Source: Euglena gracilis (taxonomy: Eukaryota). Taken from it: DNA of 64,000 bases. The position numbers and the translations under genes were made by a program. This document shows positions 6,022 to 64,000 of this stretch, piece after piece. The stretch is taken from positions 32,837,455 through 32,901,454 of the forward strand of contig CP154954.1 of assembly GCA_039621445.1 (NCBI GenBank), read 5' to 3'. The stretch's first letter is position 1; every line of letters starts with the position of its first letter. The notes under the pieces are model-generated. The model was not told the DNA's origin. It worked only from the letters and a program-made list of their open reading frames with translations, and made no database searches.

Positions 6022-9000
6022 TCACCAGTCGTCGTCCTCCGCCACCTTCCGCTTGACGACTATGCTGGGGCCGGTGGAGCCCCCGCCGCCGCCGCCGATC
6101 TGCTCCAGGAGGGTGATGAGCTGGTCCTCCTCCACTGGGGGGCCCTGACAGCCCCCACTCCCCGCCGCCGCCAGGGCACGGATGCATCGCCCTCCGGTTC
6201 ACACGCACAGACCCAAACGCACCATACAACCCCAACCCCAAATATTATTACATATAAAATAGTAAACAAATAGTTATAATAAAAAACACATATGACATAC
6301 AATATTCAATAGTGTGTGCACCACACACACCACCCCCTCCGGCTCATTGGCCTGGCCACGTTGGCATCCTGCCCGGGTCAAACTTGGGAGGCCGACGTCA
6401 CTTGGGGTGGCGGCGAGCTCCATCCATCGATGCACCGCAAACATGGTCGCCGCCAAACCGCCACCCAAACCAAAGCCAGGGCTGGGCGGAGCTGACCGCG
6501 GGAGACGGCCTGGAGGAGGAGGTTCTCGACTTGCCGGGCCTTGTCGGGCTTCACGGTGGAAATGCGGCCGAGCCGCTCTCGAGCCTCAGGGGAGAGGACG
6601 GCCAATGGCAGGGCGGCCTCGCAGTGTGTTTCAAATGGCATTCCAGGTCCGTTCACCAACTGATCTGTACTAATGCCAAACGTAAGCGTTGCTAATAAAC
6701 CCCATCGTTTACACTGACGGGTCGGTATGTCACCTTTCTTTCTTGAAATCCTGGGGAGGGGGGTCAGTAAAAATGGGTCAAGATACTCGACTGGAGGGGG
6801 GGGAAGGGACGAGGCAGCGTGCATTCATCCTGTCCCCTGTCCCTAATAAACAAAAGTCCATCGGTTTGCGTTTTGCCAAAATAGACATTGGGGTGAGCCT
6901 GAGTGCTTTGTTGTGTTTATCCCTGTGTTTTCTTGTGCTTACCTTGCTGTGCACCGGTGCAAAAGAGGGGGTCGGTGTAGATGGATTTCTTCTGATTTTT
7001 CTGTGGTCGGCCGGGGTCGATCTAAATGGGTTCTCCAAAAATTGGGTTTTATTGTTGGGCTCGTTGCTAGAACCTGTAGGAGTCTTGCCTTTTGGGGCCT
7101 AATTTGCCTTTTCTGACTTACTTTGTACATTGTATCGTGCATTTTCCCTCGACCAACCGGGCCCAGAATACCATCGTTTTATCCAAAAAAGAATAAACTT
7201 CCTCCATATACTTATTAAAAAAGACTCCATAAACTTCCTCCAAAAAAGGCTAAAAATAAACTTCCTTGGACATGTCAGACCATCATACTTTAAAAATAGG
7301 GGCCCACCAGCCTCGGTGGGGGGGGTGTAGGGGGGGTGTTGGGGGGGATGTGGGCGGGGGGTGTGGTGGGTGTGGGGGCGAATTTGCTAGTGGAGGCGCC
7401 AATTTTTGCAACACCTGCACCGCCGAAGGCGGCTGTCCCTCTAAATTTAATATCCCTGCCAGCATCACCGCACCAAGAAACACTTCGTGCCAATTTGCGC
7501 AGCCTTGGGAGCTGGCTTGCACTGTCCCGACCCCAGACTGAATGCAACGTGCAACGAAAGCTACCCACCGCCGAGCGGAGGCGGGGGCCCTGGGGAGCAG
7601 CATGGACTTCCGCTTCTCCTCCTGCTCCTGCTGCTGCTCCTGCTGCAGCTGTTGCTGCTCCACCTGCTGCTGGAACGGCGCCAGGGTCCGCGTCGGGGAG
7701 GCGGGTGGGGCTGGGTAGGAAGGCCGGGGGGGGGGGGGGCTGGTCGACCTCTCCCCACACCCAAGAGGTGTGGGAAAGGATGACCGCCCACCCACCAAAA
7801 TTGCAATTTGCAGAGAAAAAATCTGCTGGCGCTGAAGGAAAACGTTGACCAAAAACCGGCGCCCCTAGATATGAGAAGGGATCACTGCCCATTGCCCACC
7901 CCTTGGGCTATTGATCCGGTGAGGTTCCGCCAAAGCCCTCTGGGCATCAACTGTCCCCAAGCCTCCTTGGAGGTTGACTGTCACCCACCGGTCAAAAAAT
8001 GTTTCATGGAATCTTCTCCAGAGTATCCTGCACATATGCCAACCGCCAGGGGGGCTTCCAAAAACCAGCCACCCCCTCCCCCAAGGGGGGTCGGCCACTC
8101 TGGAATCCAAGCAGGGGGTATTGTTTTCATTAGTTTTCAAATTTTAACTATTTTAATGGTGCCTTTAAAATACTTGGCCGAAATCCCTTAAAAAATCTGA
8201 AAAAATCATTCTGGGAATTTTTTTGAAATTCGAGCTTAAAATGAAGGGCGCAAAAATCTCGGCAAGAAACAAACCAATTCCAGGAAAAGGCGATTTCTGG
8301 CATTTCGCTGGAACATTCTCCGTCCACCCAAACCCGAAATAATGGGATTTTCGACATTTTTGATTTTGTGCCCGGTTCGATGCCAGGATGGACCTGGATT
8401 TCCCTTGTAAAATGGACCTTAAAACTTCAAAAAACGTCTTAAAAACCTTGAAGGAAATAGAAAATTTCTTAAGAAATAATATCCCTGAACCCAAGAGAGA
8501 TTTCACAACAAACTTGAAAAAAGTAAAACCTTTTTTCCCGGCGCCTTCGGTGCCAAATCAAGTGGGGTTTTCTGTTGACCCCCTGGGGGGGGGGGGAGGG
8601 AATCCGGGCCAAAACCAGTTAGTCACGCTGAAAAAATCAGTCACCCACCCCCCCAGAGGGAGTCAGCCAGTGACTAAGTCATTGTGTCTTTGACAGCAAC
8701 CTCCTGGAGGCCTGGGCGTCGCTTAACGCCGCCCCCCCCCCCCCGAGAGGTTCCACCTCAGAGGAATTGGAAAATCAGGGTTGGCTGGAATAAGACTGCT
8801 GGCTGATCTTCAGGGATATTTCTTTTCAGGACCATGAAGACCCACCCGGGGGCACTCCCCCCCACAGGGGAGGGGGGGAAGGAATTCCAGGGGACCTCCT
8901 TTTGGGGTCAATTCTGGAAGGAAATAATTAAAAGGAGGGTGCCCCCACCGTGGAGCGGGTTTGCGGACCAACCTTTTAAGAATCCCTCCCCCACCACCCC

Positions 9001-17325: not shown

Positions 17326-17737
17326 CAGGCATTGCTTCTTCAAAGGCGCCTGAAAACACTTCAAAAAACCCTAAAACTTTTTTTGGGCAAAACGCTTTAT
17401 AAGACCTTAAAAAACAGTAAAAACCTCAATAAACTTGGAAAATTTTTTGAAGTTTGAGCAAACAAGAAGTCGCAAAATATTGGAAAAAACAGCCAACTCT
17501 GGGGGAGAAAAATGGAACATTGTCTATCCACCCAAAACTCAAAAAAATGGGTTTGATTTCAACCTGGACCGACGTTGGTTCGACGCCCAGATGGCTCTTT
17601 GACCGCCAATGGAAAATGGACGCCTGAAAACTCTTTGAAAATTTCAAAATGCTGTAAAAACCTTTAAAAAAAACCTTAAAAAAATTCCTCAGAAAACTTA
17701 AAAAATTGAGAAATTTCACCTTAAAAAATAATTCCTG
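17326..17737. mobile_element. hAT-like MITE (CAGGCATT... family) with degenerate TSD
   Basis: Termini CAGGCATTG...AATAATTCCTG. Flanks CAGGTTAC / CAGGTAAA match at 6/8. Internal sequence is shared with 43553-43972 and the ends of 48107-49610. Confidence 0.65.
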
Positions 17738-25000: not shown

Positions 25001-28000
25001 CTCGCGGTCCCAAAGCCGCAAAATGCTTGCCATGCTGGGTTGGGACGGGGTCCCACGGGTCGGTCCCTGCGACGCTAGCATTGGGGGGGACAGCCGGGAA
25101 GGTGACAAAAGAACTCATTTCTGTGTTTGGCCGACCAGCTCTGAATCCTGTGCCGACGGAATTGGAATTGGAATTGGCCACGCGAGTCTCCTACTCGCGT
25201 GGCCATGCACTGAATTGTCAACAAGACGCTGGTGTTTCAAACCCCGGACAACTGACCCATTTGCCATCGAGGCGCCAGATGTCACAAGCCCATTCCAGCT
25301 CAGCCAGCAAAATGGACGTCAGCCATTGCCTGCGAGGCATACACTGCTGCGTGCACAAACACCCGTTAAGGCAACCTCGAGGTTGTAGGATTCAGGCAAA
25401 TGTCGGAGGAAAAAGGCCTGGCCAGCAGCGATTTCACGCGCTTGCACCGGGAGGCCAATCTGTTGTGAAGGGTGTGTGTGTGGCTGGCGGTCGGAGCTGC
25501 CATCCTCCCTCGGGAACCCTGAGCCCACAACTTATCCCACACTCAACAAAACCCTTTTGACGGCGGTGGTGTTCGGCCGCCCCATTCGCAAGGAGGCGTT
25601 ACACACTGCACACCCGCTCCGCCCTCAGGTACGCTGCCCCCTTGTGAGAGGCGGTGGGCACGAAGAAGGAGACCGCCAAGGAGGCCCACAGGGTGTACGG
25701 CCGCAGCCCGGAGGACCCTGGGGGTGTGCGGTGGCCAAATTGACCGAATCCGTGAATGTTCCACGGCGGCGGCATTTCCATCTTCTGACTGGAATCAATG
25801 GAATGTCGGTCAACATGCAATTAAAACATTAAAGGTGGGGGATTTGGGGTGATGCAATTGCTGACGCAGAGAGAAATGACTCTCTGATTGACACATGGGC
25901 ACTCCAGCAGCAGGCCGATTCAACTTTTCAGCTCCTGAAAGGAATCGCTTCAATATTTGGAGAGGTGGGCAGGGGGCAGTTTTTAAGGTGCCTTTAAAAA
26001 CCTAAAAAGCCTTAAAAAGGAACGCCTTAAATCTTTGGCCAAAATGCCTTAGAACATCTAAAAAACTTAAAAAAACCTAAAAAATAAGAACCTTATAAAA
26101 CAAAAACAAGCCAACTCCAGGAAAAAATGATTTCTGGCACCGCTAAAACATTCTCAATCCACCCTAACTCGAAAAAATGGGGTTTCGACGTTTTTGCTTT
26201 TGGACCCCCGTTCGATGCCGGGATGGCCCTTGGACTTCCTTTGGAAAAGAGACGCCTTAAACTTTTAAAAATGTCGTAAAAAGCCTTAAAATACCTTAAA
26301 AATGCCTTGGTGAACCTTATATAACTTTTTTTTCAAAATTTATGCCTTAAAAAGAAACCCCTGGAAGAGGGAGCCCGAAAATGTTTGAGAGTCCCTGAAA
26401 AAGATAGACCTGCGAACGTGGGGGACAGGTAGTGCAGCAGGCAGGCCAGTGTTGGGACGAACGCCGCTGGCTTCTCTGATGCACATTTCTGTGAACGCCG
26501 GCATCCGAAACCTTCGCTGGTGCAGATGGGTGATTTTGTGGTCCGAAGGCTCCAACAAAACAGATGTGCAAATGGCACTTCCTGGAAACAGGCTTCCTGT
26601 TACCATCCCTGGGGTTGCCTTCTATTATTATGGGCTGCCTGCCCAAAGCAGGCACCCCCCCCACCCCAGGGGTCACTTTTAGGCCCTGGTGCCTGCCGAT
26701 CTAGCCAACTTTTCCTTGAAAATGGCCATTTTTGGACCCCTGGCGCCCTCCCCAAAACCGAAACCGCCCAAGGGGGGTGCGAATTCGCACAGGGGTTTGC
26801 TCTTCCCACCGAATGCAGCTGCTTTGACTTCAGAAAAACGATACCCCCCCCCCCGAATAGTGCTGCGGGGCCAATAGAGCTGCGGGTCCAAATAGTGCTG
26901 CACCCCGCCGGATGAAGCGAGCGTCCAATAGAGCTGCGGGTGCAATACTATTTGGGGGGGGTTTGCTGACCGTTGCTGGTGGCAGAAGAAAGGCCAGTCA
27001 AAGCGTCTCCAGTGATGCTGCCCAGGAAGACGAAAGGCGCCCACGCCCCCGGCGGCAGCTCTGGCTCCCAGGTCATCACGCCCGCAGGCGGCGGTTTGGC
27101 GGAATCCGTGACGCGCCAAAACACGACTGAAGGGAAGCCCTCTGGATGGAGCCCTCCCCTGCAGCTCGATCAGTTAACGAATTAACCCCTCCCAAACTTA
27201 AAAGGTAATTAAAAACTGGAGGACAGGGTGGATATGCCATTTGGTCAGATTTTTCAAACTGAAAAAAAAATGGCGAGTCTTTTTCTTTCGGGTTCACACC
27301 AGGGCGGTCTTTAAATGAAAAAAAGTGCTAGGGCTTCCCGTCCTAGCACATTCAATGCAAAATCCACAGGAAAAATGGGCGGAAAAAAAGGACATATTTT
27401 TGCAAAAACGAGTGGACTTCGGGGAAAATAAATGACCATCGCCGATCCACCAAAACGTTAAAACTGCGTTTTTCGACTTTTCCATCCCTGTTCGCCAGTC
27501 CGGCCCTTGGACAGGGAAAAAACTTCCTGTCCCTTATGGACCACCCTGGTTCACACACTGTGCAGTACAGACCGCAACAACACAAAAGCCGAGCGATTGG
27601 TCAAACAAAGCAAAAAAAAAACAACAACACGTATGCACAGGCGCAAAGCGCTGGCTGCTCTTCACACAGGCTGACCACCACATAGTGCAGGCCGACGCAC
27701 AGCAGGCTCGCCTGGATGGCCGCCTCCTCCGGCACAGCAGCGGCGAGGCGCTGCGGCAGAGGCCGAGAGCGGGACGAGGCCCACAGGACGAGGGCCGGTT
27801 GCGCATCGGACAGGCGCCACGGCGACCAGGAATGGTGGGGGGAAGGGGGGGCGGCAGTGTGCATTGAAGCCTCAGGCAGGGGAGAAGCGGGTCAGAGGCT
27901 CGCCGCGGACGTCAATGACACCCAGAAAGAGAGGAAAGAAGACCACCCCATCAATGTGGGTGGGGGGAATGATGAGCCACTCGGCCACCTGCTGGTTGTA

Positions 28001-34300: not shown

Positions 34301-36157
34301 AACTTTTTGATTTTCAACCTGGACCGACGTTGGTTCGATGCCCGGATGGCTCTTTAACTTTCTGGGTCGAATGTGTTGTCGAAGACAGTTTGCTGTCTGG
34401 TTTTTGATGTACTGATGTTCTGCCGCAGGATTTTGCGAGGGAGGTCCTTAAAAAAATACCTGTCCCAACATATTCAACGACACAAAATCCACCGGGAAAA
34501 TGGCCGAAAAAATGGCCCCATTTTGACAAAAAAGAACAGGTCGAATTCAAGAAGAAAAGGTGATTTCTGGCATCCTTGGACCATCGCCCATCCACCCAAA
34601 CCGTCCAAAAAGCGGTTTTCGGTGATTAAATTTTTGACCCCGCTTGACTCCCAGACCAGCCGTTGGCCTTTGACTGCAACATATCGGACCGCACGACCCG
34701 GTCAGTAAAGGTGCTGAGCCCTTTCTGTCCTGGCAACACTCCGTGAACCAAACAAATCCATATTGCGACCCATAAATGGAAATTCATTCAGGATTGCTCT
34801 CAGGGGCGATCCTGAATTTGAACCAAGGTTGGCAATGGATCTTGCATTTGGGGGTTGCGATATTTTGCGAGATATTGCACCCCTTGCGAAATTTGCGGTA
34901 CAATCGAGAATTGCGCGTGACTGGATGTGACTGGGCGTGACCTGGTTTGAAACTTCACCGGGGTCCTGGACCCCTTCCCCCCTGCCCAACCAGTGACCTT
35001 CACCGTGAAGTTAACCACAAGAGCGCTTTTCGGCCAAAAATGGCCAAAAAAAGACATTTTTGGCAAGTGCTCAGAAATTTTGGTAAATGTCCTTTGACCC
35101 ATCAATCCAAAATGACCATTTTGTCCCCCCGATGAAATTCACCGGCCGAGGGTTCCCCCTCCCCCGCTGAATGTTCCCAGTGAACTTCACCTGGGGGGTC
35201 CACAGTCCCCTGCCATCAACTGAGACACGTGATGAAATTGTATGCATCATCTCTAAAGTTTGGGATGACTGGCATATCTCTTAAAACGCCCCCAATTAGA
35301 AGCCCCCCCTTAGGGTTTCCCTCCAAAAATTCAAATAACAGCCACCCCCCCCGACCAAGCCGGCCGACAAAGCTGACCATGAACTGTTCCGAAAAATGGT
35401 GAAAAACTCGAAAAATCTCCACGAAAACAGGTCGAGATCGGGAACAAAATGACTTCTGGTGTCCTTGAAACATGGCCTATCCTCCCAAAACTCGAAAAAA
35501 ACGCATCTTGCAAAATTTAAAATCTGGGCCCTGTTCGATCACCGGATCGGCCGCCAGCCGACGGTTGGTTTGTCCTTTAGACAAAGGGTGCCAAATTAGA
35601 AGCTCCCCTCGGGTTTTCTGCAGACCCCCGGGGGGCTTCGAATAGGGGTGGGGGTTTAGTGTGAATGGGCTTGATGGCGTGAATTCGTCGCGGGGGGATG
35701 GGGGATTTTCGACTCGCTGTGCTGACGTCACCCAAAAATGTGCAAGAAGTTAGTCAAAGAGTTTCTGACACAGAATTAAGCATTACGGGCAAAAAAAAAT
35801 ATAATTGCGATATTTTGCGCGATGCTTGCAAGATATTGCACCCCTGTGCGATATTTTTCGAGATTGCGATATTTGCGATATTGTGCGATATCCAATTACC
35901 AACGTTGTTAAGGAATTATAAAACGACAAAGATGCTGTCATTTGCACAATGCCTTAAAATGCCTTAAAAATAAGCCTGAAAAAATAATGCCCATTGATGA
36001 CCCTTCAGCCAGACAACAAAGAAATATATGAACCACTCCTCAGCCACACACCGCAGTCGGTAGCAGGAAAGAACGATGACGAGGGCACATCCCACTGGGG
36101 AAGGAGGCCAATGCAGAGCCTGCCAATCCCCACATCAAATCAGACTGTCAGTTCAGA

Positions 36158-39100: not shown

Positions 39101-42100
39101 AAGTTTTCAGCTTGGTGTTTTGCACATGTGCAAAATTGGATTATATTGAGGTTTCACATGAGCATTTTGGTCCGAAAATCCCCCCAAAATGAGGCTTATC
39201 ATCATTTCATGCTTGAAAATAGGATTTCAGCAGTTCCCCCTCACCAGAAAGGCCTTGAAATTGGGGGGGGGTTCTTTTGGATTTTTTGCTTGGTGGGCCC
39301 GTGGGTGGCCTTCTTCTTTGGAGGAGCTTGGTTCATACATCTCTTTAAGGACCCCGGGGGGGGTTGCTGGGCTAGGGCTAGAAATTTGGGCTGGCTGGGG
39401 GGGGGGCGGGCTGGACCCCGGCTGGACCCGAACCGGGGCGAGCTGGACTGAAATCGGAAAAATGTCCAAAAATGACCTGCAGAACACAGTTTTGAAAAAA
39501 TGATGCATCTGAAACCCCCCAAAAATGCCCCAAACACCCCCCAAACCCCATTTTTGGCCACTTTTGAACACAGTTTTTCAAAAAATTTCGGCGCTTCGTG
39601 CCGAAAATTTTTGGGCTGGACCCCCAAAAAAGGGGCTGGCTAGCTGGGCTAGCAGCAACCCCCCCCCCGGGGGGGGTGCTGCTGCGGCTGGGCTGGGCCC
39701 AAATCGGGGCTGGCTGCAGCCGCCCCCCCCCCGGGGGGGGTTCGCAAAACCTTAGAGAGATGTATGGCTTGGTTAGCACAAATACTGACACAAAATCCAT
39801 CCTCCTGATCGTCGACATTATCCTGCCTATAAATAAAGAAACTTGAAGTGGAAAAGCTTGGAACGAGGCTTCCACAGAGAAGAGGGAGGAAATTGGGATC
39901 AAATCGAGGCGACTTGTTTTGTTGATTGCAGGATGGAATGGCAGAGGGGCCCACCCAAGCAGAGCGGCAGACTCAGCAGCGCCCCCTCGGCCGCTTTCAG
40001 GTGCATGTGTTTCCCACGATGACCGCACTGGATGGCGCTTGCAGGGCGGCAATGCCGCGGGGAGACACGCTTCAGGGGAAGCGGGAAGCGGAAGCGTTTG
40101 TGGTGTGGGGGATGTCCCTTTTCTCCAAACGTTGAGAACTGGGTTTACCGGGAATGATGGCTGCAGAGCCACTCCATTTTGGAGAGGGGCCGTTCAGCGA
40201 AAAAAAAATCTGTCCCGTGGCTGAATGGGGAACCATGGCGCCTGCCGACCCTTCGGGTGAGTCTTACTGCTACCGTTCTGGTGAGTCTTACTGCTGCCCT
40301 TCTGGTGAGGAGTCTTGAGGACACTTTTACACGACGAATCCGCCTGTGCTGTGGTCCAGCCCCGAGGCACGGTGGAGCTTTCGGCCGCCCTTCTCGCCGG
40401 CCGCTCTGCTGCCGCCCTGGGGGTGCTCCAGCCGCGGCAGGCTGTGGGCAGGTTCACACGCCGGCAGCAGCGCCCGCAGCAGGCGGTCCAGGGACCGGCA
40501 CTGCTCCTTCAGCAGGCCGAAGTGGAGGGCCCCGATCTCGCGAACCCACTGCAGGGGGTGGGCGGGGCGGTCCTAAAAAACCCTGTCCCGGCACAGTGGA
40601 AAAGATGGCCGTGGATGCGAACGTTCTGGCAAAACCGTGTTGACAGTGGCGACTGGGGCCGGTGATGCCAACAGGTTTTGTTCTGCACATCGAGAAAAAC
40701 CTTCTCATTAGACGCCAGAAGGAATCAAAGGTATAAAATTAAGCACATGGACCAAAAGAACAAAAGGGTGGATTCCACCGAAGCTGGGTTGGAGGGACAG
40801 CAAAATGCTGCGCACTTGCGCAACGGCCACACACAAATGCTTAAAAACGAGTTCCTCAGTTACCGAGGCCCGGAACAGTTTCAGCCAATGCCTGCTTCAA
40901 CACCAAAGAGAAATAACTCCCAGGGAACGAAAGGGGTGACCCAAGAACTGGGGCGAATTTCGCCCTCGCGGAGGGGGAATCCTGTTTCACTGGGAAGAAA
41001 CGAAATCACCCGAGACCAAAGACCCACACTCAGAGAACAAAGCGTGCCTTCTGTTTTCACCCGATGCCTGTTTTTTGGGGGTGGTCGCAGCAGCATGGGA
41101 CAAACACCGGGCATGCCAGATGACTCCTGGGAAGACCCGCATCACCGCACACCTCCGCCATCGAGGCCTCCCCCTGGGCCTGCAGTTGCCGACAAGGCTG
41201 TGTGGATGGGGGGTCAGATCCCCCCACCACCACAGCACCGTGCAGGAGAAAATTCCTTCGGCGCCGAAAGAAAAATTTGCTGCTTTTTAACCTGGTGGTG
41301 GTGGGGGGGGTCCACTCCCCACCACAGGATTGAGGGGGTTGACCCCCCCTCTCCCCCCACCATAGGGTTTCGAGGAGTCCCCCACAGCCCTGGGTGCAGG
41401 GCGAGGGAATTGAGGGTGGAGAGGTGCCGCTCGTACTGCTGCTCGTGCCGCCGATCGATGGCCGCCCGGGTGGGCAGCTGCAGCGCGATCTGCTTCGCCT
41501 GATTGGGGGGGGGGGTTGAGGAACGGAAGGTTTGAGGGCAGGCGTGGGCAGCTGCACTTCGAAACGAACCTGGTTGGACTCAACTGCGGGATTTGACTCA
41601 TCCTTTAGGGAAGTGTGAAGGATTTCGAATGAGGGAGAGGACTTATTTTGCTTTTGGCAGGTGGGGGGAAAGTGCGCTGGCCCAGCGTCGGAAAAAAATG
41701 CGTATGGGTTTGCCGCCCAAATATAAAGCCCCCCCTGCTGGGAAGCCAGACGATGATGTCATTCAGGAAAAGTTGAAAAATTTTAGGTGGATGCAGCATT
41801 TTTTTTTCACCAAAAATGCTTCATTTTGGATAATAATTGCCCATTTTTGCGGAAAATGGGAGGTACAAAACGGAAATTTGGAATAAACTTAGTATTTTTC
41901 CACAATTAAAGGCCGCCGAAGGTCATAGAGGCCATCCAAATAAAGTTTGTTCCCCCCCCCCCAAATATAAAGCCCCCCCCCTGAGGGTTGAAATCCCGTC
42001 AAAATATAAAGCCGGGGGTCTTATATTTGGGGGGTTTTTACTTTTTTTTCGCCACAGGCCAGCTATCGTCATGAGCTGACTCCCCCCCTCCAACTGGCTT

Positions 42101-45100
42101 GAACAAACAGCACGCTGGAATGGGGGTTGGACCTTTCCTTCGAGCCGGCACACGAGGTTGCCGTACAGCCACGGATGTCGACTGGCTTCCAGCAACGTGG
42201 AGGCGAGGCACTTGGCCACGCGCCGCAAGCGGAATGCCTGTTTGTGGGGGCAGGCGCTGGCCAATGCCCGGGGCAGTAATGTGACGATAGCTTTGTCACC
42301 ATATGCACATACATACACAGATACACGCGCCACAGCATCACATCATGTATCTTGGGGGACAAGGGCGCCACGGACGGGATTTTTCTTTTTCGGGTTCACC
42401 CCAACACCCCTGACTAAGGCTAGTGGGGGCGCCAATTTTTGCTATATGGACAAATTGAACTGCCCATCATTTTCTGAAATCGAAATATTCCCATCATTTT
42501 CCCCCTGTCATTCCCCCCCCCTGTCATTTTTGTCTGGGATGTAAGACCGAGAAACGCGCGATCTGCCCCCTCCACCCACTTTTGATCCAGAATAGGATTC
42601 TCAGAGGATTCTACAGGCAGGGAGCACACCTCTTCACCGTTGCGGAACCGCGACCACACCCACCAGGCCCGGAAGGGGTTGGCGGTGACTGGGGCCAGGG
42701 CCACCGATGGGGTTCGCAAGCAGTGCATGTCCCGGGTGACTCTCAAAAATGCACCACACTCCACAGGACTTTATGCTTCGGAGCCACTCCCAGGAGGCCA
42801 CCTTTTCCTGTCTGGGGAATAATGCTTTGCCTGTCGTCTGCAAGAAGGACTCCGCCTCAGGACCAATTTTTTACGTTCGATGGGTGCGAACATCCAAACA
42901 AGTGGTAGACACAAACGGCGTCGACTGACCATGTCTGCAAGATTGTTGGTGACCCCCCCAATCACTTTGCAGTGCCCTGAAACTTTGCGTGCCCAAATAA
43001 CTCTGCAGACGGGAAGCCAAAAAGGATCCTTTTTGGAGAATCAGGAGAAGGTTAGAGCAAAAATCATCCCAAACGCCACAATGTTCTGTTGTCTGATGAC
43101 TGGAAGCATTAAATTGTGTCACAATTCTTAAACAAAACAGAATTTGGCCACAATTTGCTTTGGGAAAAGTGGTCAATCAACCCATCAATGGTGTTGGCTA
43201 CTGCTCAAATATCGTTGCAGGGGGTCCGGCCGAAAAAGATCGGTCTACTAACTTTAAGCGTAGTTTATGTAATAGTTTCATCCTTTTTTTCGGCTCCACG
43301 AGGTGGCCAGCCATTTCAGCACACATTGCACCCTGCCGAGCCCATTTGAGGTGTATGGCAGGTGGCATGGTGTATGCCAACTTAGGTGGGGCGAACCGAA
43401 ATCCCTTAGAACCGACTGTGCGCCGTCCCGCAGCCTGTGCTGTGCCGGTGACGTGCGGGGGAGCGGCAGGGTTCAGGGTAGCCAGGTGGGCCTGTGCAAC
43501 AGCAGCCCAAAGACCGCAACCACGTCCAGCAGCAGCTCCATCACCTCTGCGGCAGGCGTCATTTTTTTCAGGCGCCTTTACAAAGCTTCAAAAAACGATC
43601 TAAAAAATCAAAATTAAAAAAAAGGCAAACATGACTGAAAATAACATAAAAAAATCTTGAACAATTAGGCTGGCAAAATTTTTCTTCGACCGAGGAAAAT
43701 GAAGTCGAATATCTCGGCAAAAACAAGCCAACTCCAGGGGAAAAATTGGATTCTGGCATCGCTAGAAGATTCTCTCTGCTGAAACTCAAAAAAATGGGGT
43801 TTCGTTTTTTTTTATTTTGGACGCCATTTGGAACCCGGATGGCTCTTGAACCGCCGTTGGAAAACCAAACTTCGAAAATTGTAAAAAACTTAAAAAAGAA
43901 CTTAAAACGCCAGAAGAAACATCAAAAAAACTAAAAACTTAAAAATTTATCGCCTCAAAAAAACAACGCCTGCGCCGCGGCGACCTCCCGCCGGAACACG
44001 TCGCACAGCCGGGTGGTGGGGCGGGGGCCAGCCCCGGCCTGCGGCGGCAGCGAGTACGCCAGCGGCCGCTGCTCCCGCGCCGCGGCCAGGTAGGCCTGGA
44101 CTGTGAACCGCACCGCCAGCAGCGTGCCCTGCGGGGCAGCACGGGCGAAAGAGGGCCAGGGCGTGTCATTGGGGTGGCCGCCGGGGAGGGGGCCATGGGC
44201 GGGCACCCATTCTTTACTTGTGCACGGACCAGGGGGGCACAGGATCTGCCCCTTTTCACACTCTTCTGAGGCATTTGCAGTCCGGACAAAAACAACAGAA
44301 ACACCCAATATTCCCCGTCATTTTTCTCGTTGTTTTCCCCCCCGTACCTTTTCTGCACCCTTTGGAGGAGCCAGTTTCAGTGGTGCTCGAGTTTCACACA
44401 CGCAAAAAAAACTGGGTTATGATGAATTCCTTTTTGGGTTTGTTTTGTGATGAAGAATAACAAAAAACACCACTAGAAGACGTGTTGAATTCTCTCATCG
44501 TTGATTTTGCCAAGATTGGGATTTTCCTCATCATTATTTCCTGTCATTTTCCCCCATCATTTAGTTTGCCATCATTTGCCGGACTATGGACGAACAAGTA
44601 ACACACAATGCTCTGTGTTGCGTTTACCTTTTGTTCACCGCCCCCCCCCCCCAAACGTGGACCCCAGGAGAAACCTTATAAAACTTATTTCAAAACGCCG
44701 TTTAAACACTTTCAGAGCTGACTATTTCCAATGAAATCTTTGGCTGGACACATACCCAGTCCACCTGCACGCAATCCATTGGGGGTGTGGCTCAGGTGGG
44801 GACCACCTACGGTCCCTCACCCTCCCTTGAAAAAAAAGCCCCTTTTCCTTCATCGAAAGAAAAAGGAACAAATGGGACTGCCACTCACCAATTGAGTTCT
44901 GTGACAGGTTGGCCAGATCATTCCACTCCCAAAAGGAAGCAAAACGATGTCCATGCGCGCAATTGCGGACACACAAGCCAATCAAATCTAACCAACAACC
45001 TCTTATCCTCTGTTTGGCGCGGGAACATTGAACGAACCGTGGTTTTGAAAAAGTTTGTATTGGCACTTTGGCAATGGTAAAAAAAAGTTTGTATTGGCAT

Positions 45101-48100
45101 TTGTACTTTGTATTGGCAGCAACTCTGTTAAAACATGCGTTTCGAGATGTGTGAGCTTGATACACACTGCAGACTGCGAAACTATTCCCAGACACACCTG
45201 CCCGCTGCCGTACCGCACCTCCAATTGAACAATGGGGTTGTGGCAGGTCCCATATTCCAAATTCCGTGCGCCAGAACCCAAACCGGCAGTCATCCAGCTC
45301 TGTGGGGAACCCCTGGGTGAAGAAAATGGCGGGCAAAGCTCAGGAGAGCGTCGACTTCGAAGCCTGATGTTCATCAGAAAAAGATGGCACCAAAGGGGGG
45401 GATTTCCTTTTGTTTGTTTTTTTTTTGAAGAGGAAAGCTTTAAAAAGTATTTGCCTCAAAGAATTTGGATTTGGAATCAGCTGTTTGGGTTGGGCGCTGG
45501 TGGCCTCCACCCGATGGAGGAGGACGCCAGAACGTTCGGAGGGTGAAACGGCTGGTTTTCTGGTTCCTTTCCTCCTCCGGACAGAACCCTCCCCCCAACT
45601 ATAAGTCCTCCCGGGTTTGCTGTTCAATCACAGTACAGTGTGGAAAGCCTGTGGGGGCGTCTTCTATTCTGCTTTGGCCAAATGGCCTGGGGCCGGTCTG
45701 GGGATCAAACAAAAATTAAAAAAAAGCCAAAAAATGTATCTTTTGAACTTTTGGGTGGATGGGCGTTGGTCCAAGGATATCCGGTTTCAACTTTTTTCCC
45801 TTTGTCGGCTAGACATTGTAAGTTTTCCCTTCATTTCTGTCCGATTTTCGGCCCAATGCACTGGGCCGCCCTGGAGGGGGCTGTTATTTGGATTTTTTTT
45901 TGCGGGAAACCCGAGGGAGGGGGCTTCTAATTGGGAACTTCTCTCCGTCGATGCAGCAGCACATGGCCTGGGCGGATCGTTCCAGCTTGGACAGCACGTC
46001 GTAGAAGGTGTGTCTGAGGCAGGAGGCGGGTGCACGGGGGCAAATACATAGCGACAGCCCCAGGAAAAGAAAAATGTCAGGGGACAGGTGACAGGGCTTC
46101 TTCCACGCCCGCCAGGCGTTCCGGACAACCCCCAGAATTTCACGGGGTTGGCTGAAAGCACCAGAAACGTCAGGGTAAAGAGTCCGGAGTGCTCCCTCAA
46201 AGCCCGAAAGTGGAATTGACATCCGACGCTGCGACGAAATTTTTATGAATCAGCAGAACCCCTGAGGCAGGGCGGTTTTCAAAAGTTGAAAAAAAAACCT
46301 CCAAATCCCAGCACATTCAATGAAAAATCCACCAGATGAATGGAAGAATGGCTGTGCAGCTATATTAGGCTAAAATAGGTCGACTTCACGGGAAAAAATA
46401 CTTCTGGCATCCTTGGACGATCGCCCGTCCACCAAAAACATCAAAAGATGTATTATTTGAGCTAAAACTTTTCGACACCGTTCCACATCTGGACCAGTCA
46501 TTGGCTGGGTATTAAGCCTAAGGGCGGTTTGGAGGGGAAAAAAGAATCCTGTCCCTTATTGACCAAAAAAAAACACCCCCCACCACCCGCAGTTCTTGAA
46601 AGCAGAGGGGACACTTCAGTTGCCAGGCATGGCGGGGGCGGGTACCGGCTCATTGGAAGCTTGACCACCGTGGCCACCGTGGCGCTGCCCGCCACGAAGT
46701 CGCCGGCGCAGACGTACTTCGGGCACAGCTTGAGGGGCAGGAACGCCCGCAGTATAGTCGGGTAGTACCCCAGGAGGCCCAGCCGATGCCAGAGGCCCCG
46801 GTTGGCGGCCTGCGCACAAAATACCGTTCGGGTTTTACCGACCCGCTTTGACGAGGTCATTTGGGGCACAAAAATTTTCTGCGTTTTGCATTGAAATTAA
46901 GAATCCCCTTCTGAGGGAGTACCGACTCGGCCCGAACCCTCAGCTGGGGTTGCTGCCCCCCCCCCTTCCCCTGGGTCGGAAACTTTGAAAAAAACCTCCG
47001 GGTTCAACGGGCATTGGAATCAGGGCGCTGAAGAGCAGTGGACAGAGGGGCACACGTCGTCGAGGTGGAGGTAGCTGGACTGGAAGGCCAGCCCCGGGGG
47101 CTTGGAGGCCGTCAGGAAGAGGCGGGGGCACTTCCCCTCGACGCAGGTCGGGGGCTCCGGGCGGAGCTCGACCCGGTCCAGCTGGGGCGTGGGGTCGGCG
47201 GTGCCTCGGGTGCGGCGGGCCAGCGTCCGCGCCAACCGCACGAAATAAAACCTGCGGGTGTGGGGGGTACAGCGGTCTCAAGCGCAGGCAGCAACTGTGC
47301 CGTGGTCAAGGGTTCAATGCTGGGGAAAGTCAGCGTTTGTTAGTGGTTGGCTGGCTCCGTGGCTTGGGCACCCGTCTCACTGGGGGTGTTTCCTGGGCCG
47401 AAAGAATAGACCCAGGGCGGGGGGCAATGCCTTAACGCCCCCCCCTCCAGTTGTGTCTAGAGCTGTCTGACATCCTTGGGTCACCTGCAGTGCAAAGGGA
47501 AGGGCCCAGGGAGAGGCAGGGCAGACCGGGAAGACCTGGTGGGGGGGGTGGTCGACCCCCCCCCCCACCACAGCATTTTCAGTGATTTCGGGAAAACAGG
47601 GATATTGGCCGGGAAGATTTTTGAAATTTTTTTTGAAAAATGAACCCAAAACGCATGATTTTTTGATGGAAAACCACATTTTTCACAAAAAATCTCAAAA
47701 TTTTCGTCCTAAAAACTGGTACTTTTTAGGAGGGGGGTGAAAAAAACGAAGGTCAAAAAAAGTGGACAAAATTTTGGCACAGTCAAATTTTACTGACAAT
47801 TTTTCTCGTTGAACTTTTTTGGACTTTCAATGGCATTTTTTTGCTTCAAAAACCTCTCAAAATCAACATTTTGAGAAAATGTTGAGGTTTTGGAAGGTGT
47901 GAAAAAATGGGGGTTTGGGTGGTTTTTGGGGGGACCCCCGATATGGGTCCCAAAATGGGTCAAAAAACCACCCGGCGCCGAAGGCACCGGAAAATTTTTT
48001 TAGGGTCCAAAAATTGGTGCTCCCGGAAATACGGGAAGAGGTGGTGGGGGGGTCGACCCCCCCCCCCCCACCCACCATGCAGGGGGTGGGGGGAGGGGGT

Positions 48101-51100
48101 GGTCGACAGGCATTATTATTTTTTAAGGCGCCTTAAAAAACCTTAAAAACCTTAAAAACCTTTAAAAAATCACCCCGGGGAAGTTTTTCTTCCCTGTGAT
48201 GACCTTAAAAAACCTTAAAAATTATCCCTGAGAAAATTTTTTCTTTCACCAAACAAATAATGGCATGTCTGAAACCCCGCATAAAGCCAGTCAATGCAGA
48301 AGCAGTTGTGAACAGGCTTCTTTTTAAGACCCCTGGGGGGGAGGGGGGGGTCCCCCCCCCACCCACCCAGGGTGGCGCGGGACCCCCCCGGGGAGGGGGG
48401 GCGGGGACCCCCCAAAATCGGGCCCGTTAAAGGCAATTTTCAAAATTTCGGCGCTTTGCGCCGAAAAGGTATACCCGGCGCCTCCGGCGCGGGACCCCCC
48501 AGGGGGGGGGTCCGGCCCAGACCCACCCACCCACCCCCCCTCCCCGGGGGGGGGGGGGCTTCTGACTAAAAAGGAGCCTGGTTGTGAACAACCAACATGA
48601 AAACCGGATTGTTCGCCAAGGTTTCTGGCACAGTTCGTTTGGCCTCGGTTCACCAAAGGCTATGACACACGGCCAGAAAAAGTAAAACTTGCAACCACAT
48701 CTTTCTTGATTTGAATTACTTGAGACATTCGTAGAGGAGTCAACCCAAATTGCTCAAAAGTGCAATTGCAGCAAAAGTTGCATGAACAACAAAAAAATAC
48801 CGATTTGGGACAATTTACTACGCTGGAGCAGTTTCCCACACTTGCCACAGCATTTCAAAAAGCGAAACAGCGCGTTCTCCAATTGAGCTGTGATTCCGCG
48901 AATTTTTCCCACTTTCTTGCCCAAGCACGCGAAAGTTTTGATCCCCGCACTCATGTGCAGCAGTTGGAAGAAAGAATTTCTCGTTTATAGCAGAAATCTT
49001 GCCATTGTGGATAAATTCCTGCTGAATTTGCAAGCTTTCACACCCAAAATCTCGAATATAGCAAGTAGGATTGAGAATTTGCAACAACAGTGGCAAAATG
49101 ACACAGTGGATATCCGAACTGCAATCGCGGATTTGCAGACCCGCAATGCGGCCGTGCACCCACACCGGATAGTCTCATTAACACCGAGAAAATAATCAAA
49201 CTTCTTCATGTGAGCAATACCAAACGCGTGCCCATGCAGTGTGCTGCCATACACATTGCTCAACAAACTCGAACTCGAACTCAAACTCGAAACCATCCAT
49301 TTTTTATTCATTGCAATTACTTTAAATTTCTGACCCTATTCAGGATATTTGCTTGCATGTTGACAATAACTGTCCCTCATGGACCGCCCTGATCCCCATC
49401 CTTCGCCCTCTCTTCCTTGGGCGTTCCGAAGCCACAGAGGAGTCTGAAGCCATTGGGCCATCTTCGGGGTCTGGCATTTTACCTGAGGAAAAAAATGCCT
49501 TAAAAAATCTTAAATTTTTTTTAAAATCCTCAAAAAACCTTAAAAACCTTAAAAAACCTTAAAAAACGCCTTAAAAAATTTGAGAAATTTCGCCTTAAAA
49601 ATAATGCCTGGTGGTCGACCCCCCCCCCCCACCCACCACCCTGGCTGTTCGGCCGATTCCCGTTCTGCCCTGGGGAGAGGGGAGACCCGGTCGGCAGCAG
49701 AGCCACAAACAGCGCCATGAAGGGCAGGTCGAAGAGCAGCCCACCGAAGTGCCGCAGGCAGACCCCCCGCCACGCGTCGCTCTCCCCCGCGGCGGCCTGG
49801 ACCACGGGGGCCGGTTGGGGGGATGGGTCAGGGTCGCGTATGAAACGAGCAAAATAATGGGGGGTGGGTCGACGTGTGTGACAGACACTCTCATTCAGAC
49901 AGAACCCAAGGTCATCTCTCTCCCTGGGTGCACCAGTTGAGAGTCAAACGGTTCATACAAAGCGTGGCCCAAGATACGGTCGTCGATATATGAACATGAT
50001 GGGTACCAAAATGGGTACCGCCAGCTTCGACCCCTGGGTTTTTTCCTGGGTGAAACGACTTTTTTCGTTTTGAAAATAGTGGTTTAGCACCTCCGCCGAC
50101 CAAGGAGAAACCCCGTATGCCAAAGGAGGTGTGACACAAAACGCTGTTTCACGAGGACGAACCCTGGTCAGGTGAAGCCGTTGTACCTGTTGCTGTCCCC
50201 CCTGTTTTGTGGTTCCCAATGAATGCGCAGGAGCGCATTCACCCCCCCTCCCCGCCCCAGCCTTTTCCTGAAGTGTTGGACGGTTATTGCGGCTCCGGGG
50301 GAAAGAGGCACTGTGGTCTCTCTGTTTAGAGTGGCGGGGACGTTCTGTGCCGTGTGTTTGAAGCAGGGCCTGGGGGGAGCGCCAGCGAATGTTTGATGTG
50401 TGCGTGTGGTGTGCATTCAGAGGGTGGCGGGGGGGGGTGTTTAAATCCACACCAGATGTTGGTGGGGGAGGGCTTGTTACCCTCCTCGGGATGCCTGCTG
50501 TTTGCATTCCACACGGCGCACTGCAGCCCTCATCCTGGGTTCACTAGGCCCTGCCCCCCGGAAGCCATCAGCACACATCGGTGAACACAAGGCACACCCA
50601 GGTCCAGGTTGGCCTACGTCGCCCGTGTTCCGCATGTCATGTGGTGTGTCGAGTGTGTGTCCAGCCGCGTACCGTACCACAGTCGTCGTGAAACAGTTGT
50701 AAACAGCATGATACGTAATTGAAGCAGTATACAAGGGGGTGGTCCCTGTGTTGTGTTAAATCCAAACAGCTCATTTTGTGGTGTTTACCCCAGTCTGGAA
50801 GAAGCACAGAACCATCCAGAATGCGCACCTGCGCACTCCGCTTCCGGAATGGGCGGATGCGCATTTTCATAAAACTGCCAGAATTTTGTGACTCAACAAG
50901 AAAAGTGCATTCCCGGCTGTCTAAGCCTTTGGCCCAAGGGTGGTTTCTAAGGGGCGGCCCTTAAAAGAAAAAAATACATTCCTGTCCCTTGTGGACCGCC
51001 TGTTTCTAAGGCTGCGAAGCATTTGTGACGTCAGTGGGGATGAGTTCCTTTATAGCAAGCATACCATCGTTGTTTACGTCCTATTTCCTCCCAAAGCGTG

Positions 51101-54100
51101 TTTTTGTCCAAAATGGAGTATATATGGTGAAAAAATTGTTGTATCCACCCATTTCCCCCCTGCTTTTCCCGATCATTCAGGCGGCAAAACCAAACCCCCC
51201 CAGGGGGCTTCGTTTTTTTGGGGGGCTTTACATTTTGGGGCTAAACATTTGGGGGTTTACAAGCCGACTAACCGGCAAGGCTTGCATGGGGGATGGACAG
51301 GACTCGGCGGAGCACCTGCAGGTCCTCCAGCAGCGCCCTCGTGCGCCACAGCGTGAGGGCCACCACGATGCCGCACAGCGCCGCCGGGACGTCCAGCGCC
51401 ACGAGGCCCAGGAAGTGGCGGCAGGGCCCGCCGGGATGGTCCGGGGCACGGCACGCCTTGGCACAGTCATCCGCATCGGGACCCAGACCAGCACATGTGC
51501 GTGTCGAGGCACACATGCGGACACATATTACACAGACCCGAACTCATTTCTGTGGTTGGGTACAGCCCAGCCGCAGCCTCGGGGGTTCCGCTGGGCGGTG
51601 GGTCTGGCGGGCTCTGGAGGGTAAAACACGATGGCCTTGCACTGGAACAGCTCTCCGTCCCGCCAGGGGCCCCGCGCCTCGGCCAGCACCCGGGGGAGGC
51701 GGTACCCCCCCACCCCACCAGCGCGATGGGCAGCAGCAGGACGTCGAACACCTGGGGATGTGTGTGTTGTGTGTGTGTGTGTGTGTCTGTCGGTGTGTGT
51801 GTGCGTGTGTGTGTGTGTCTGTCTCTGTGTGTGTCTGTGTGTGTGTGTGTGTCTGTCTGTCTGTGTGTGTGTCTGTGTGTGTGTGTGTCTGTCTGTGTGT
51901 GTGTGTCTTTCTCTGTGCGTGTGTGTGTGTGTGTGTCTGTCTGTGTGTGTGTGTGTGTGTGTCTGTCTGTGTGTGTGTGTCTGTGTGTGTGTGTGTCTGT
52001 CTGTGTGTGTGTGTGTGTGTGTGCGCGCGCACGTATGTCCCAACACTGGAAGGGAACCGTTTTCCAGCACTTTGCGAGTTGTTTCCACCGCAGTCCCCCC
52101 GTTCTCCAACACACATGCCCGCAGGGAAAACCCCTGAGGTGGCCCCCTGACCCCTGTAGCCCCCGGCCGTGTCCCCCAAACCCAAGATTCCAAAAAAAAA
52201 GCCTCGGGTGCTTTGGAACCTTTGGGAATTTGGGGTTCTGTCTGTTTGGGGTGGCAGGCATAGTGCCGCAAAATTGGCCCAAATGGCCATTCACTGCTGA
52301 GGTGTGAGGTTGCCCTGGGTGGGTTCCAATTCGAGGCGGCATCCCATCAGGAGATGCAACACACGCACGACCACCCCTCCGCGGCGGACACCACATGGCT
52401 GTTAGGGTGGGGACCACACAATTTTTTACCGACCTCGGGGGGGGGTCACCTCCACTTTTTGAAAAACCAGTCAATCACTTTTTTTCGGGAAACCAGTCAG
52501 TCACTACCCCCCCCCCTGGGGGGTCAGCCACTCTGGAATCCAAAGAAAATTTGACCAAAAACGTGGAAAAAAGGCCAAACATTTTCCGTCACCTTCGGCG
52601 CCGGGTCACTTTAGTGGTTTTTTGCCGACCCCCCCCCCCGAGGGGGGAGGGGGTCCGGGCTAAAAACCAGTCAGTCAATCGAAAAAACCAGTCACCCCCC
52701 GGGGGGGGGGGGGAAGGTCGGCCAGTGCTTAAGCAATTGTCTGGTGGGGACAGGGGGTGCACACCGTGTGGCAGAAATACTTCCAGATGAGGGGGCGGAA
52801 CGACGGCGTCAGGTTGTCCTGGTGCCGCTCGTGCTGGCGGGACCGGCGCCGGGCCTCAAGGAAGAACAGGACGGCCTCCCAGGGGCACAGCGCAGGGGCA
52901 GAGCCGGGGTGCTGCAGGTAACTGCAAGGGAGGACTGTGGCAGGCTGGCAGGCATGGGTGGGCTGTGGGAGGGGCGGCTCCGCCCCCGGTGGCAGGATGC
53001 AGAGGACCATCACGACGAATGGGACGTCCAGCACCGCGAGCCAGAACTGCACGATGCACTGCCAGCGGAGGTTGTGGTTGTAGCCCGGCTCCTGCCACGG
53101 GGGAAAGGAGGAGGCGGCGGCGCAGGCAGGCGGGAAGAAAAGCAAACACAGAACACCAGCGGAAAGACCTGAAAATAGGATCTCCGGCAAACACATGCAA
53201 ATCTTGGAGGAATAAACTTCCAGGTGACAAGGAACAAAAAAGGAAAAAAAATTACAAATACACACACATACGTAAAAAACAGCAGTGGGAAGCAGGGGAT
53301 CTGCACACCTGACCCCACCACTCCCACAGGTTCAGCAGGAGGTCGTAGCACCGCCACGTCAGGAGGGTGGGGAGGAGGTGCACCACCGCAACCCAGTCGA
53401 AGAGCGTGTAGCAGAACTGCGTCACGCCCAACTGCCGCAGCCTCCTGTGAGGACAAACCAGGATGCTTTTTGAAAAATGCCTTTAAAATTCCTCAAACAA
53501 CCCAAAGAAAAATCACTCTGGAAAATGCAACTGAGAAAAAATGCAAAACATAAAATCTCGGCAAAAACAAGCCAACTATTGGGAAAAAATGCTTTCTGGA
53601 ATCGCTGGATCGCTGGATCATTGTCCATCCATCCACCCAAACTCGAAGAAATGGGGTTTCCGACTTTTGTCTCATTTCGGACCCCATTCGATGCCTGGAC
53701 CGCCCTTGGACCACCCCTGGGCAATAGAACTTAAACAGCCGTAAATTTTTTCACTTTTTAAAAAAATGGCTGGGAGAGACCCGACCGTGCTGAGGGGTCG
53801 GCGTCGAATCAAAGCGTGCGTGGGCAGCTTTGGCCCCGGAGGGCCTTGCCAGAGGCGGCAGCGGCCTCCCGCCTTTCACTCCAGCAGAGGGAAGGAAAGG
53901 CACACCACCGAAGGCCGTTCTCATCGTCCTCTGCTGCCTGCCGCAAGACATCGGCAGGCCACGACGGCGCCGCCAACCTTGCGAGGCTGGAATGTGGGGG
54001 CGGCCGACCGCCCATCGGTCGGCTGAAAACCCGGTGCTTCCCCCAACCTCGTAGGACTCGGGGGTCTGAGTTGAAATGTCAACGTGAGGCCGGGTTGCAC

Positions 54101-59420: not shown

Positions 59421-59492
59421 TGGACGAACAGGGGATCGAACCCTGGACTTCCCGCATGCGGAGCGGGCGCTCTACCACTGAGCTACACGCCC
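59421..59492 (-). tRNA. tRNA-Ala(CGC), or a recent pseudogene of it
   Basis: GGGCGTGTAGCTCAGTGGTAGAGCGCCCGCTCCGCATGCGGGAAGTCCAGGGTTCGATCCCCTGTTCGTCCA folds as a cloverleaf with the G3:U70 Ala identity pair and A/B boxes. The anticodon loop TCCGCAT has C33 in place of U33. Confidence 0.8.
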
Positions 59493-60419: not shown

Positions 60420-60476
60420 CAGGGCGGTCTTTAACGAAAAAAAACTTCCTGTCCCAGCACAGCCAATGGGGGATTC

Positions 60477-60556
<80 letters not shown>

Positions 60557-60870
60557 GAACAAAAAAAAAAAAAAAAAAAAAAAAAAAAACACAGCCAATG
60601 GGGGATTCATTAAAAAAAAGGACGAGAAAATAGCCACGTTTTGGCAAAAATGGATCGACTTCGGGGGGGGGGGGGGAGTGATTTCTGGCATCCTTGAAAC
60701 ATCGCCCATCCACCCAAAACGTCAAAAAAATGCGCTTTTTCGACTTTTTTTGATTTTACCCACCCCCCGTTCGATCCCTGGATCGGCCGTTGTCCCTTGG
60801 GCCTAAGGGCAGTCATTGAGGGGCGGTCCTCAAGGGAAAAAAAACTTCCCATCCCTTATGGACCGCCCTA
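60420..60870. mobile_element. hAT-like MITE (CAGGGCGGTC family) with perfect 8-bp TSD and an internal poly(A) tract
   Basis: Termini CAGGGCGGTC...GACCGCCCTA. TSD GTGGGAAG at 60412-60419 and 60871-60878. Confidence 0.85.
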
Positions 60871-63920: not shown

Positions 63921-64000
63921 TGTGGACGAGAGGGGTTGGCCCGCAGCGTTTTGAGCTGGGGGTTGTTGTTGTCAATGGTTGCCATCAGGCATTATTTTTT

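Follow-up and report, generated by a model that had tools for sequence, protein, structure and literature searches.

Beside conventional GT-AG introns, Euglena gracilis and other euglenids carry introns of a nonconventional (NC) class, and the present analysis concerns one intron of this kind in a 64,000-nt stretch of E. gracilis contig CP154954.1 (this whole stretch is called the window here, and all positions are counted from its first letter). The intron, which lies in a minus-strand gene at 43548-43975, very probably arose when a transposable element of the miniature inverted-repeat type (MITE) entered the gene and duplicated 8 bp of its target, with NC splicing then removing the element together with 3+5 flanking bases. 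In genomic knock-in work on Euglena (Nomura et al. 2025, PMC12501133), the NC splicing code was defined as 5'-N3CDG-/-CH'GN5-6|R, with a 5' spacer of strictly 3 nt, a 3' spacer of preferably 5 nt and a purine at the start of the exon; according to the same data, the signal consists of CAG/CTG and the spacer lengths, not of the dinucleotide borders. The occurrence of CAG at +4 to +6 and of CTG at -8 to -6 had been noted earlier by Milanowski and colleagues (as reviewed in PMC11282704), and NC introns are described as being released as full-length circles, after the conventional introns (PMC11282704, PMC12501133). Their origin has been called open or hypothetical (PMC6221363, PMC11170887, PMC12621601), and the discussion of the knock-in study states that NC intron "origins ... 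remain unclear" (PMC12501133). One review nevertheless draws CAG/CTG as a terminal inverted repeat (TIR) and the border repeats as a target-site duplication (TSD) (PMC11282704). The NC class, its splicing code and the MITE hypothesis are thus already in print, and the idea of a MITE origin has so far drawn its support from inverted ends and from repeats called "TSD-like".

Published euglenid NC introns (Milanowski et al. 2014, PMC3935182; PMC12501133) resemble the intron at 43548-43975 in the absence of GT-AG borders, in the positions of CAG and CTG, in spacers of 3 and 5 nt, in the purine and in their pairing ends, and they likewise coexist with GT-AG introns in one gene. We found no difference in kind; what sets the present intron apart is its assignment to a MITE group with multiple copies, of which those outside exons bear 8-bp TSDs. 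The introners of Micromonas, Aureococcus and dinoflagellates are also alike in that a transposon with TIR and TSD enters an exon, is removed from the RNA and contributes its TSD to the borders; their removal, however, is spliceosomal and uses GT/GY-AG sites that come from the element or the TSD (PMC11282704). An introner of the dinoflagellate or green-alga type was rejected for the locus, as there are no GT/GY-AG sites at 43548-43975. Introns of Fritillaria borealis (Henriet 2019, cited in PMC11282704) are likewise non-GT-AG and have been traced to MITEs, but they have AG-AC or AG-AT borders, and their removal is ascribed to a modified U2 spliceosome (PMC11282704).

The borders of the intron were compared with the published code. 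Read on the minus strand in the placement 43548-43975, the intron is GCG-CAG...CTG-CCGCA: a 3-nt spacer is followed by CAG at +4 to +6, CTG stands at -8 to -6 and is followed by the 5-nt spacer CCGCA, and the downstream exon opens with the purine G. Only two placements are compatible with the RNA described below, and their terminal dinucleotides are CG..AG and GC..CA, neither of them GT-AG or GC-AG. In the predicted RNA fold, the two intron ends are paired with each other in both the minimum-free-energy (MFE) and the centroid structures (z = -2.35; 1 of 100 shuffled sequences folded as well). As far as its sequence tells, the intron thus has all the features that define the euglenid NC class, and we assign it to that class. 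The initial annotation of this DNA had formulated a "3+5 rule" for the junction without recognizing NC introns as a class; the rule holds, and it is the same as the published N3/N5 spacer rule.

To place the junction in RNA, the stretch 41000-47500 was compared with two contig sets (X1 and X2, probably RNA) and two sets of raw RNA-seq reads (X21 and X24), which come from four studies. The joint 43546>43975, at which 428 nt are skipped, was present in all four runs, being carried by one contig in X1 (depth 181.3), one contig in X2 (depth 58.8), three X21 reads with three different start points and one X24 read. Because this joint can be slid by one base, it covers the placement 43548-43975. In the X2 contig, record positions 1349-1501 correspond to 43975-44127 and positions 1551-1612 to 42629-42690, and the 49 letters between them are the 49-nt exon 43498-43546; as these pieces are contiguous, no exon and no extra letters lie inside the 428-nt gap. 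The predicted splice gap was therefore found exactly where it had been placed, in two contigs and four raw reads, and nothing was seen between the two exons. X24 is a stranded set in which the plus strand was covered by first mates only, which fits minus-strand RNA. Within the intron, the depth of raw reads was 0 to 0.19, compared with 0.8 to 2.4 in the bins that hold the neighbouring exons. These combined data confirm that the 428-nt intron at 43548-43975 is real. Exact contigs of low depth were also found in its interior (43716-43939 in X1, depth 3.8; 43577-43727 in X2, depth 2.2), at about 2-4% of the depth of the mRNA contigs; they may represent pre-mRNA, the excised intron or DNA carry-over, and they show that this very copy of the MITE exists in the X1 and X2 RNA samples. 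In the adjoining exon, position 43515 is C in the assembly and G in the X1 and X2 contigs, in three of four X21 reads and in both X24 reads, which is a strain or allele difference.

Of the nine joints that high-depth contigs carry in 41000-47500, five have GT-AG borders when read on the minus strand and four are noncanonical (introns 41187-41394, 42691-43497, 43547-43974 and 45240-45973). Two further GT-AG introns, 40549-41152 and 47253-49687, were placed from loose contig ends that could be located in the window. When the twelve exon pieces were joined at the RNA-supported joints, one frame remained free of stop codons over 364 codons, and stops occurred in the other two. The in-frame join that had been proposed across the intron was borne out, with the junction peptide as predicted and the frame open through all twelve exons. 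N3-CAGG opens each of the gene's other three noncanonical introns, which are unrelated in sequence. Intron 42691-43497 ends in CTG-N5|A; since it cannot be slid and its borders bear no repeat, NC splicing certainly acts on this transcript. Intron 41187-41394, slid by one base, ends in TTG-N5|A (a G:U variant). The earlier suggestion that the mechanism is not specific to one family fits these three introns, two of which have the form N3-CAG...C/TTG-N5|A and the third a 4-nt 3' spacer, and it agrees with the published code as well, in which CAG/CTG, the spacer lengths and the purine are the only requirements (PMC12501133).

The same borders can be read in another way, namely that a tolerant U2-type spliceosome removes the intron at CG-AG borders, as in the MITE-derived introns of Fritillaria, with no separate NC pathway. 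One of the two compatible placements does end in AG (CT..CG on the plus strand), and an adaptable spliceosome has been proposed in a paper on diplonemids (PMC12621601). However, neither GT nor GC stands at the matching 5' border, and the intron's 3' end is rich in A, in contrast to the C-rich polypyrimidine tracts that end the conventional introns here (at the five GT-AG joints and in the two further placed GT-AG introns) and that have been reported for conventional introns of E. gracilis (PMC11170887). The neighbouring noncanonical intron, moreover, ends in CC, so AG is not required in this gene, and the knock-in signal is not one of dinucleotides (PMC12501133). We regard removal by such a spliceosome as improbable and retain NC splicing. 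Likewise rejected were GC-AG readings with a length of 431 or 429 nt, for which the RNA contained no joints. The C-rich tracts of the conventional introns and the noncanonical introns with the code, four of nine in 41000-47500, are indirect support for a euglenid source of this DNA.

The content of the intron was then compared with the rest of the window. The block 43553-43972, read on the minus strand, starts with CAGGCGTTG and ends with GACGCCTG, and its TIR arms (43552-43574 and 43951-43973) are 23 nt long and 87% complementary; short, AT-rich, non-coding and bounded by terminal inverted repeats, it has the makeup of a MITE. The eight bases on either side of the block, CCGCGGCG and CCGCAGAG on the minus strand, match at 6 of 8 positions. 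Apart from the MITE, the intron comprises 3+5 flanking bases and nothing further. The coordinates, flanks and TIR given by the initial annotation were thus correct, as was its statement that the intron is, end to end, the element plus these flanking bases.

BLAST within the 64 kb gave eight non-self matches of the MITE at E<=1e-5, so the element is multi-copy; the best matches had 78% identity over 150 nt (E 2e-27) and 73% over 215 nt (E 4e-24), and identity to the relatives over the core was 70-81%. The match to 17326-17737 was collinear over the full length. When the intron MITE was aligned by MAFFT with 17326-17737, 8112-8482 and 25970-26362, the copies had common ends, arms of the A-rich CCTTAAAAA type and a shared core. 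Overall identity to the other copies in this alignment is only about 60%, and the intron element is a diverged relative rather than a near-identical copy. Among the copies named in the initial annotation, 17326-17737 is collinear, and the ends of 48107-49610 match. As for the further copy said to begin at 63986, its first 15 nt match, but only these 15 nt lie inside the window. Because copies with CAGGCRT ends and copies with CAGGGGG ends share the core, the CAGGCRT family forms part of a wider group, and the two kinds of copies probably belong to one superfamily. Six of the seven group copies with both ends located have an 8-bp TSD matching at 6 of 8 positions or better. In the seventh, 34117-34462, the flanks match at only 1 of 8 positions, and its right end is doubtful, probably not being the true end. 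The element 47517-49672, which has a perfect TSD, sits in the conventional GT-AG intron 47253-49687 of the same gene, and since 48107-49610 is nested inside that element, it is a true "ordinary" insertion, as had been claimed.

The length of the duplication was examined across the window. All CAGG...CCTG elements in the window have terminal CAGG and 8-bp TSDs in common. Among 61 CAGG...CCTG pairs (TIR matching at 11 of 14 positions or better), six had perfect 8-bp flanking repeats and two more had repeats matching at 6 of 8 positions; when the flanks were shifted by 10 bases as a control, the best match was 4 of 8 and none of the 61 pairs reached 5 of 8. When repeat lengths of 2 to 12 were tested on the 61 pairs, perfect flanking repeats of at least 4 bases occurred only at length 8. 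A scan free of any assumption on the end motif yielded ten TIR-bounded elements with perfect 8-bp repeats, nine of which start with CA; one of the ten was set aside as a probable poly-C artefact. On these counts, CAG-ended elements in this genome duplicate exactly 8 bp.

With respect to transposon class, the TIRs of hAT elements follow the consensus YARNG. The CAGGC end fits four of its five positions, and the CAGGG relatives fit all five; hAT elements are also alike in having an 8-bp TSD and short TIRs that start with CAG. Merlin DNA transposons with 8-bp TSDs have been reported in E. gracilis, with TIRs that have terminal 5'-GG-3' (PMC8101967). The Merlin superfamily was rejected for the present group: the TSD length is the same, but the ends here are CAGG...CCTG, with CA/TG forming part of the inverted repeat, and not terminal GG.

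From these data, the following course of events is proposed. A non-autonomous DNA transposon (a 420-bp MITE with inverted CAGGCGT... ends) would have inserted into a coding exon of the minus-strand gene, duplicating 8 bp. In the pre-mRNA, the inverted ends are predicted to pair and to bring both borders together, whereupon the euglenid NC machinery would read CAG at +4 to +6 and CTG at -8 to -6 and cut 3 nt before CAG and 5 nt after CTG, ahead of a purine (the junction is seen in RNA, and the rule comes from published knock-in genetics). As the two spacers add up to 8 (3+5), which is also the length of the target duplication, splicing takes out the element plus the number of bases in exactly one duplication. 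RNA excision would thereby undo the insertion and restore the pre-insertion reading frame, a frame that is indeed open. If the original target was CCGCGGAG, both TSD mismatches fall in the spliced-out halves, as neutral decay after insertion would predict. The interpretation of the intron as a spliced-out MITE, first put forward in the initial annotation, is supported. As a more general and more tentative proposal, which we favour by a modest degree, the NC spacers would be the two halves of the 8-bp duplication and CAG/CTG the tip of the TIR, so that NC splicing would be precise excision at the RNA level for one CAG-ended superfamily with 8-bp TSDs.

Several observations weigh against this account. 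The overall identity of the intron MITE to the other copies is 0.60-0.63 by MAFFT, and so low a value means that the group is old. A TSD match of 6 of 8 in GC-rich sequence is, taken by itself, a chance event of about 1%. Intron 45240-45973 (minus strand), which is carried by high-depth contigs, has spacers of 3+4 (GCC-CAGG...CCTG-CCAC|A), and for none of the other three noncanonical introns was a TSD or an end-to-end repeat family found in the window. For the present intron, the NC machinery and a circular product are taken from the literature. In a search for a transposase, 10 of the 15 open reading frames of at least 230 aa in the window (the other five overlap these) gave no Pfam match of any kind, and because no transposase was found, the superfamily of the MITE is unproven. 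Finally, the joint was seen in RNA or RNA-like runs only, and an allele or paralogue free of the element could in principle supply joined RNA.

According to this last possibility, the joined RNA would come from an empty site that never carried the MITE, and the element at the locus would not be spliced at all. The ancestral target CCGCGGAG would indeed yield exactly the mRNA sequence that was observed. Against this, the borders are an exact fit to the N3-CAG/CTG-N5|R code, no flanking repeat is present at the transcript's other three noncanonical introns, which therefore cannot be empty sites, exact contigs of the interior of this copy occur in X1 and X2, and the same junction was found in four studies; we consider an empty site very unlikely. 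Equally unlikely is that the 6/8 flank match arose by chance and that an older NC intron acquired, or merely resembles, MITE sequence, for although the match is a single one in GC-rich DNA, the copies are old and diverged and nested repeat pieces occur inside other introns, the intron consists of the element plus 8 flanking bases with no other sequence, both ends of the family type are found in it, in collinear order with full-length copies, six of seven end-located copies bear an 8-bp TSD at 6/8 or better, and no control pair among 61 reached 5/8.

Insertion followed by NC splicing, if it is the correct explanation, has consequences beyond this gene. The locus offers a concrete case in which an entire intron belongs to an identifiable MITE group, and the 8-bp duplications around the sister copies outside exons are clean. 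The genetically defined 3- and 5-nt spacers also find a simple arithmetic explanation here, in that together they remove one duplication. On the more general proposal above, any insertion into an exon with a purine as the sixth base of its TSD would be born already spliceable and silent, which would explain how NC introns can form most introns of a Euglena genome. The MITE-origin hypothesis thereby becomes testable genome-wide and by knock-in. In the open-access literature, supplements excluded, we found neither a named MITE family that also has copies outside introns nor any remark that 3+5 equals the TSD length, although such statements may exist in print. The features of the locus and the related copies are listed in Table 1.

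Table 1. Coordinates of the intron, its parts, the adjoining exons and the related copies in the window.
Feature	Position	Strand	Basis and remarks
Nonconventional intron, 428 nt	43548..43975	-	3+5 placement (equivalent: 43547-43974); RNA joint and border sequences
Upstream TSD copy CCGCGGCG	43973..43980	-	First 5 nt kept in mRNA; last 3 nt are the N3 spacer
Downstream TSD copy CCGCAGAG	43545..43552	-	First 5 nt are the N5 spacer; last 3 nt open the next exon
Inverted-repeat arm at intron 5' end, carrying CAG at +4 to +6	43951..43973	-	TIR pairing; paired in MFE and centroid folds
Inverted-repeat arm at intron 3' end, carrying CTG at -8 to -6	43552..43574	-	TIR pairing; MFE and centroid folds
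MITE body, 420 bp, GC 0.35	43553..43972	.	Flanks GC 0.67 and 0.81; family similarity
Upstream exon, ends ...EVAA	43976..44127	-	Contig pieces, joints, frame
Downstream exon, starts EVMELLLD... (3+5 placement)	43498..43547	-	Contig pieces, joints, frame
Full-length family copy, 412 bp, within repeat cluster	17326..17737	+	TSD CAGGTTAC/CAGGTAAA, 6/8
Copy with family ends, nested in element 47517-49672	48107..49610	+	Perfect TSD GTGGTCGA (8/8)
Related copy, same core, CAGGGGG ends	8112..8487	+	TSD 7/8
Related copy, same core	25970..26363	+	TSD 6/8
Related copy, same core	53459..53772	+	TSD GGACAAAC/GGAGAGAC, 6/8, by eye
Start of further copy (CAGGCATTATTTTTT), first 15 nt before window end	63986..64000	+	Sequence match

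Other features of the host gene were also recorded. A Pfam search with six exon translations gave no family at the cut-off, the only hit being DUF7066 at a sub-threshold E of 0.03, and a comparison of exon 6 with a protein collection (longer proteins, 256 candidates) gave no match at E<=0.01. The joints 41732>41958, 41836>41960 and 46333>46402 were set aside, as they lie inside introns, are carried by contigs of depth 5-26 and have no raw reads. Low-depth contigs accumulate in large numbers at 41700-41980 and show odd joints and inserted letters; this region is probably a repeat of high copy number that lies within the conventional intron 41498-42131. An open frame across the excised site was considered as a detector of transposon introns and proved uninformative, since background spans in GC-rich DNA are equally long.

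The nine elements with perfect 8-bp TSDs are located at 821-1143, 20097-20375, 21647-22092, 27300-27548, 39334-39766, 48107-49610, 48313-48580, 52415-52743 and 60420-60870. Their TSDs begin with G on the plus strand in all nine cases and with GT in eight, and only three of the nine end in C; from this bias, either the target preference is asymmetric or all of the elements lie in one orientation. Three MITE-like elements (47517-49672, 48107-49610 and 48313-48580), each with a perfect 8-bp TSD, are nested in the GT-AG intron 47253-49687. A further family, with CATAC... ends and perfect 8-bp TSDs, is represented by 821-1143 and 39334-39766; because a CAT tip is unfit for the CDG signal, splicing might fail for copies of this family that land in exons. 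The sole Rfam match in the window was a tRNA gene at 59421-59492 on the minus strand.

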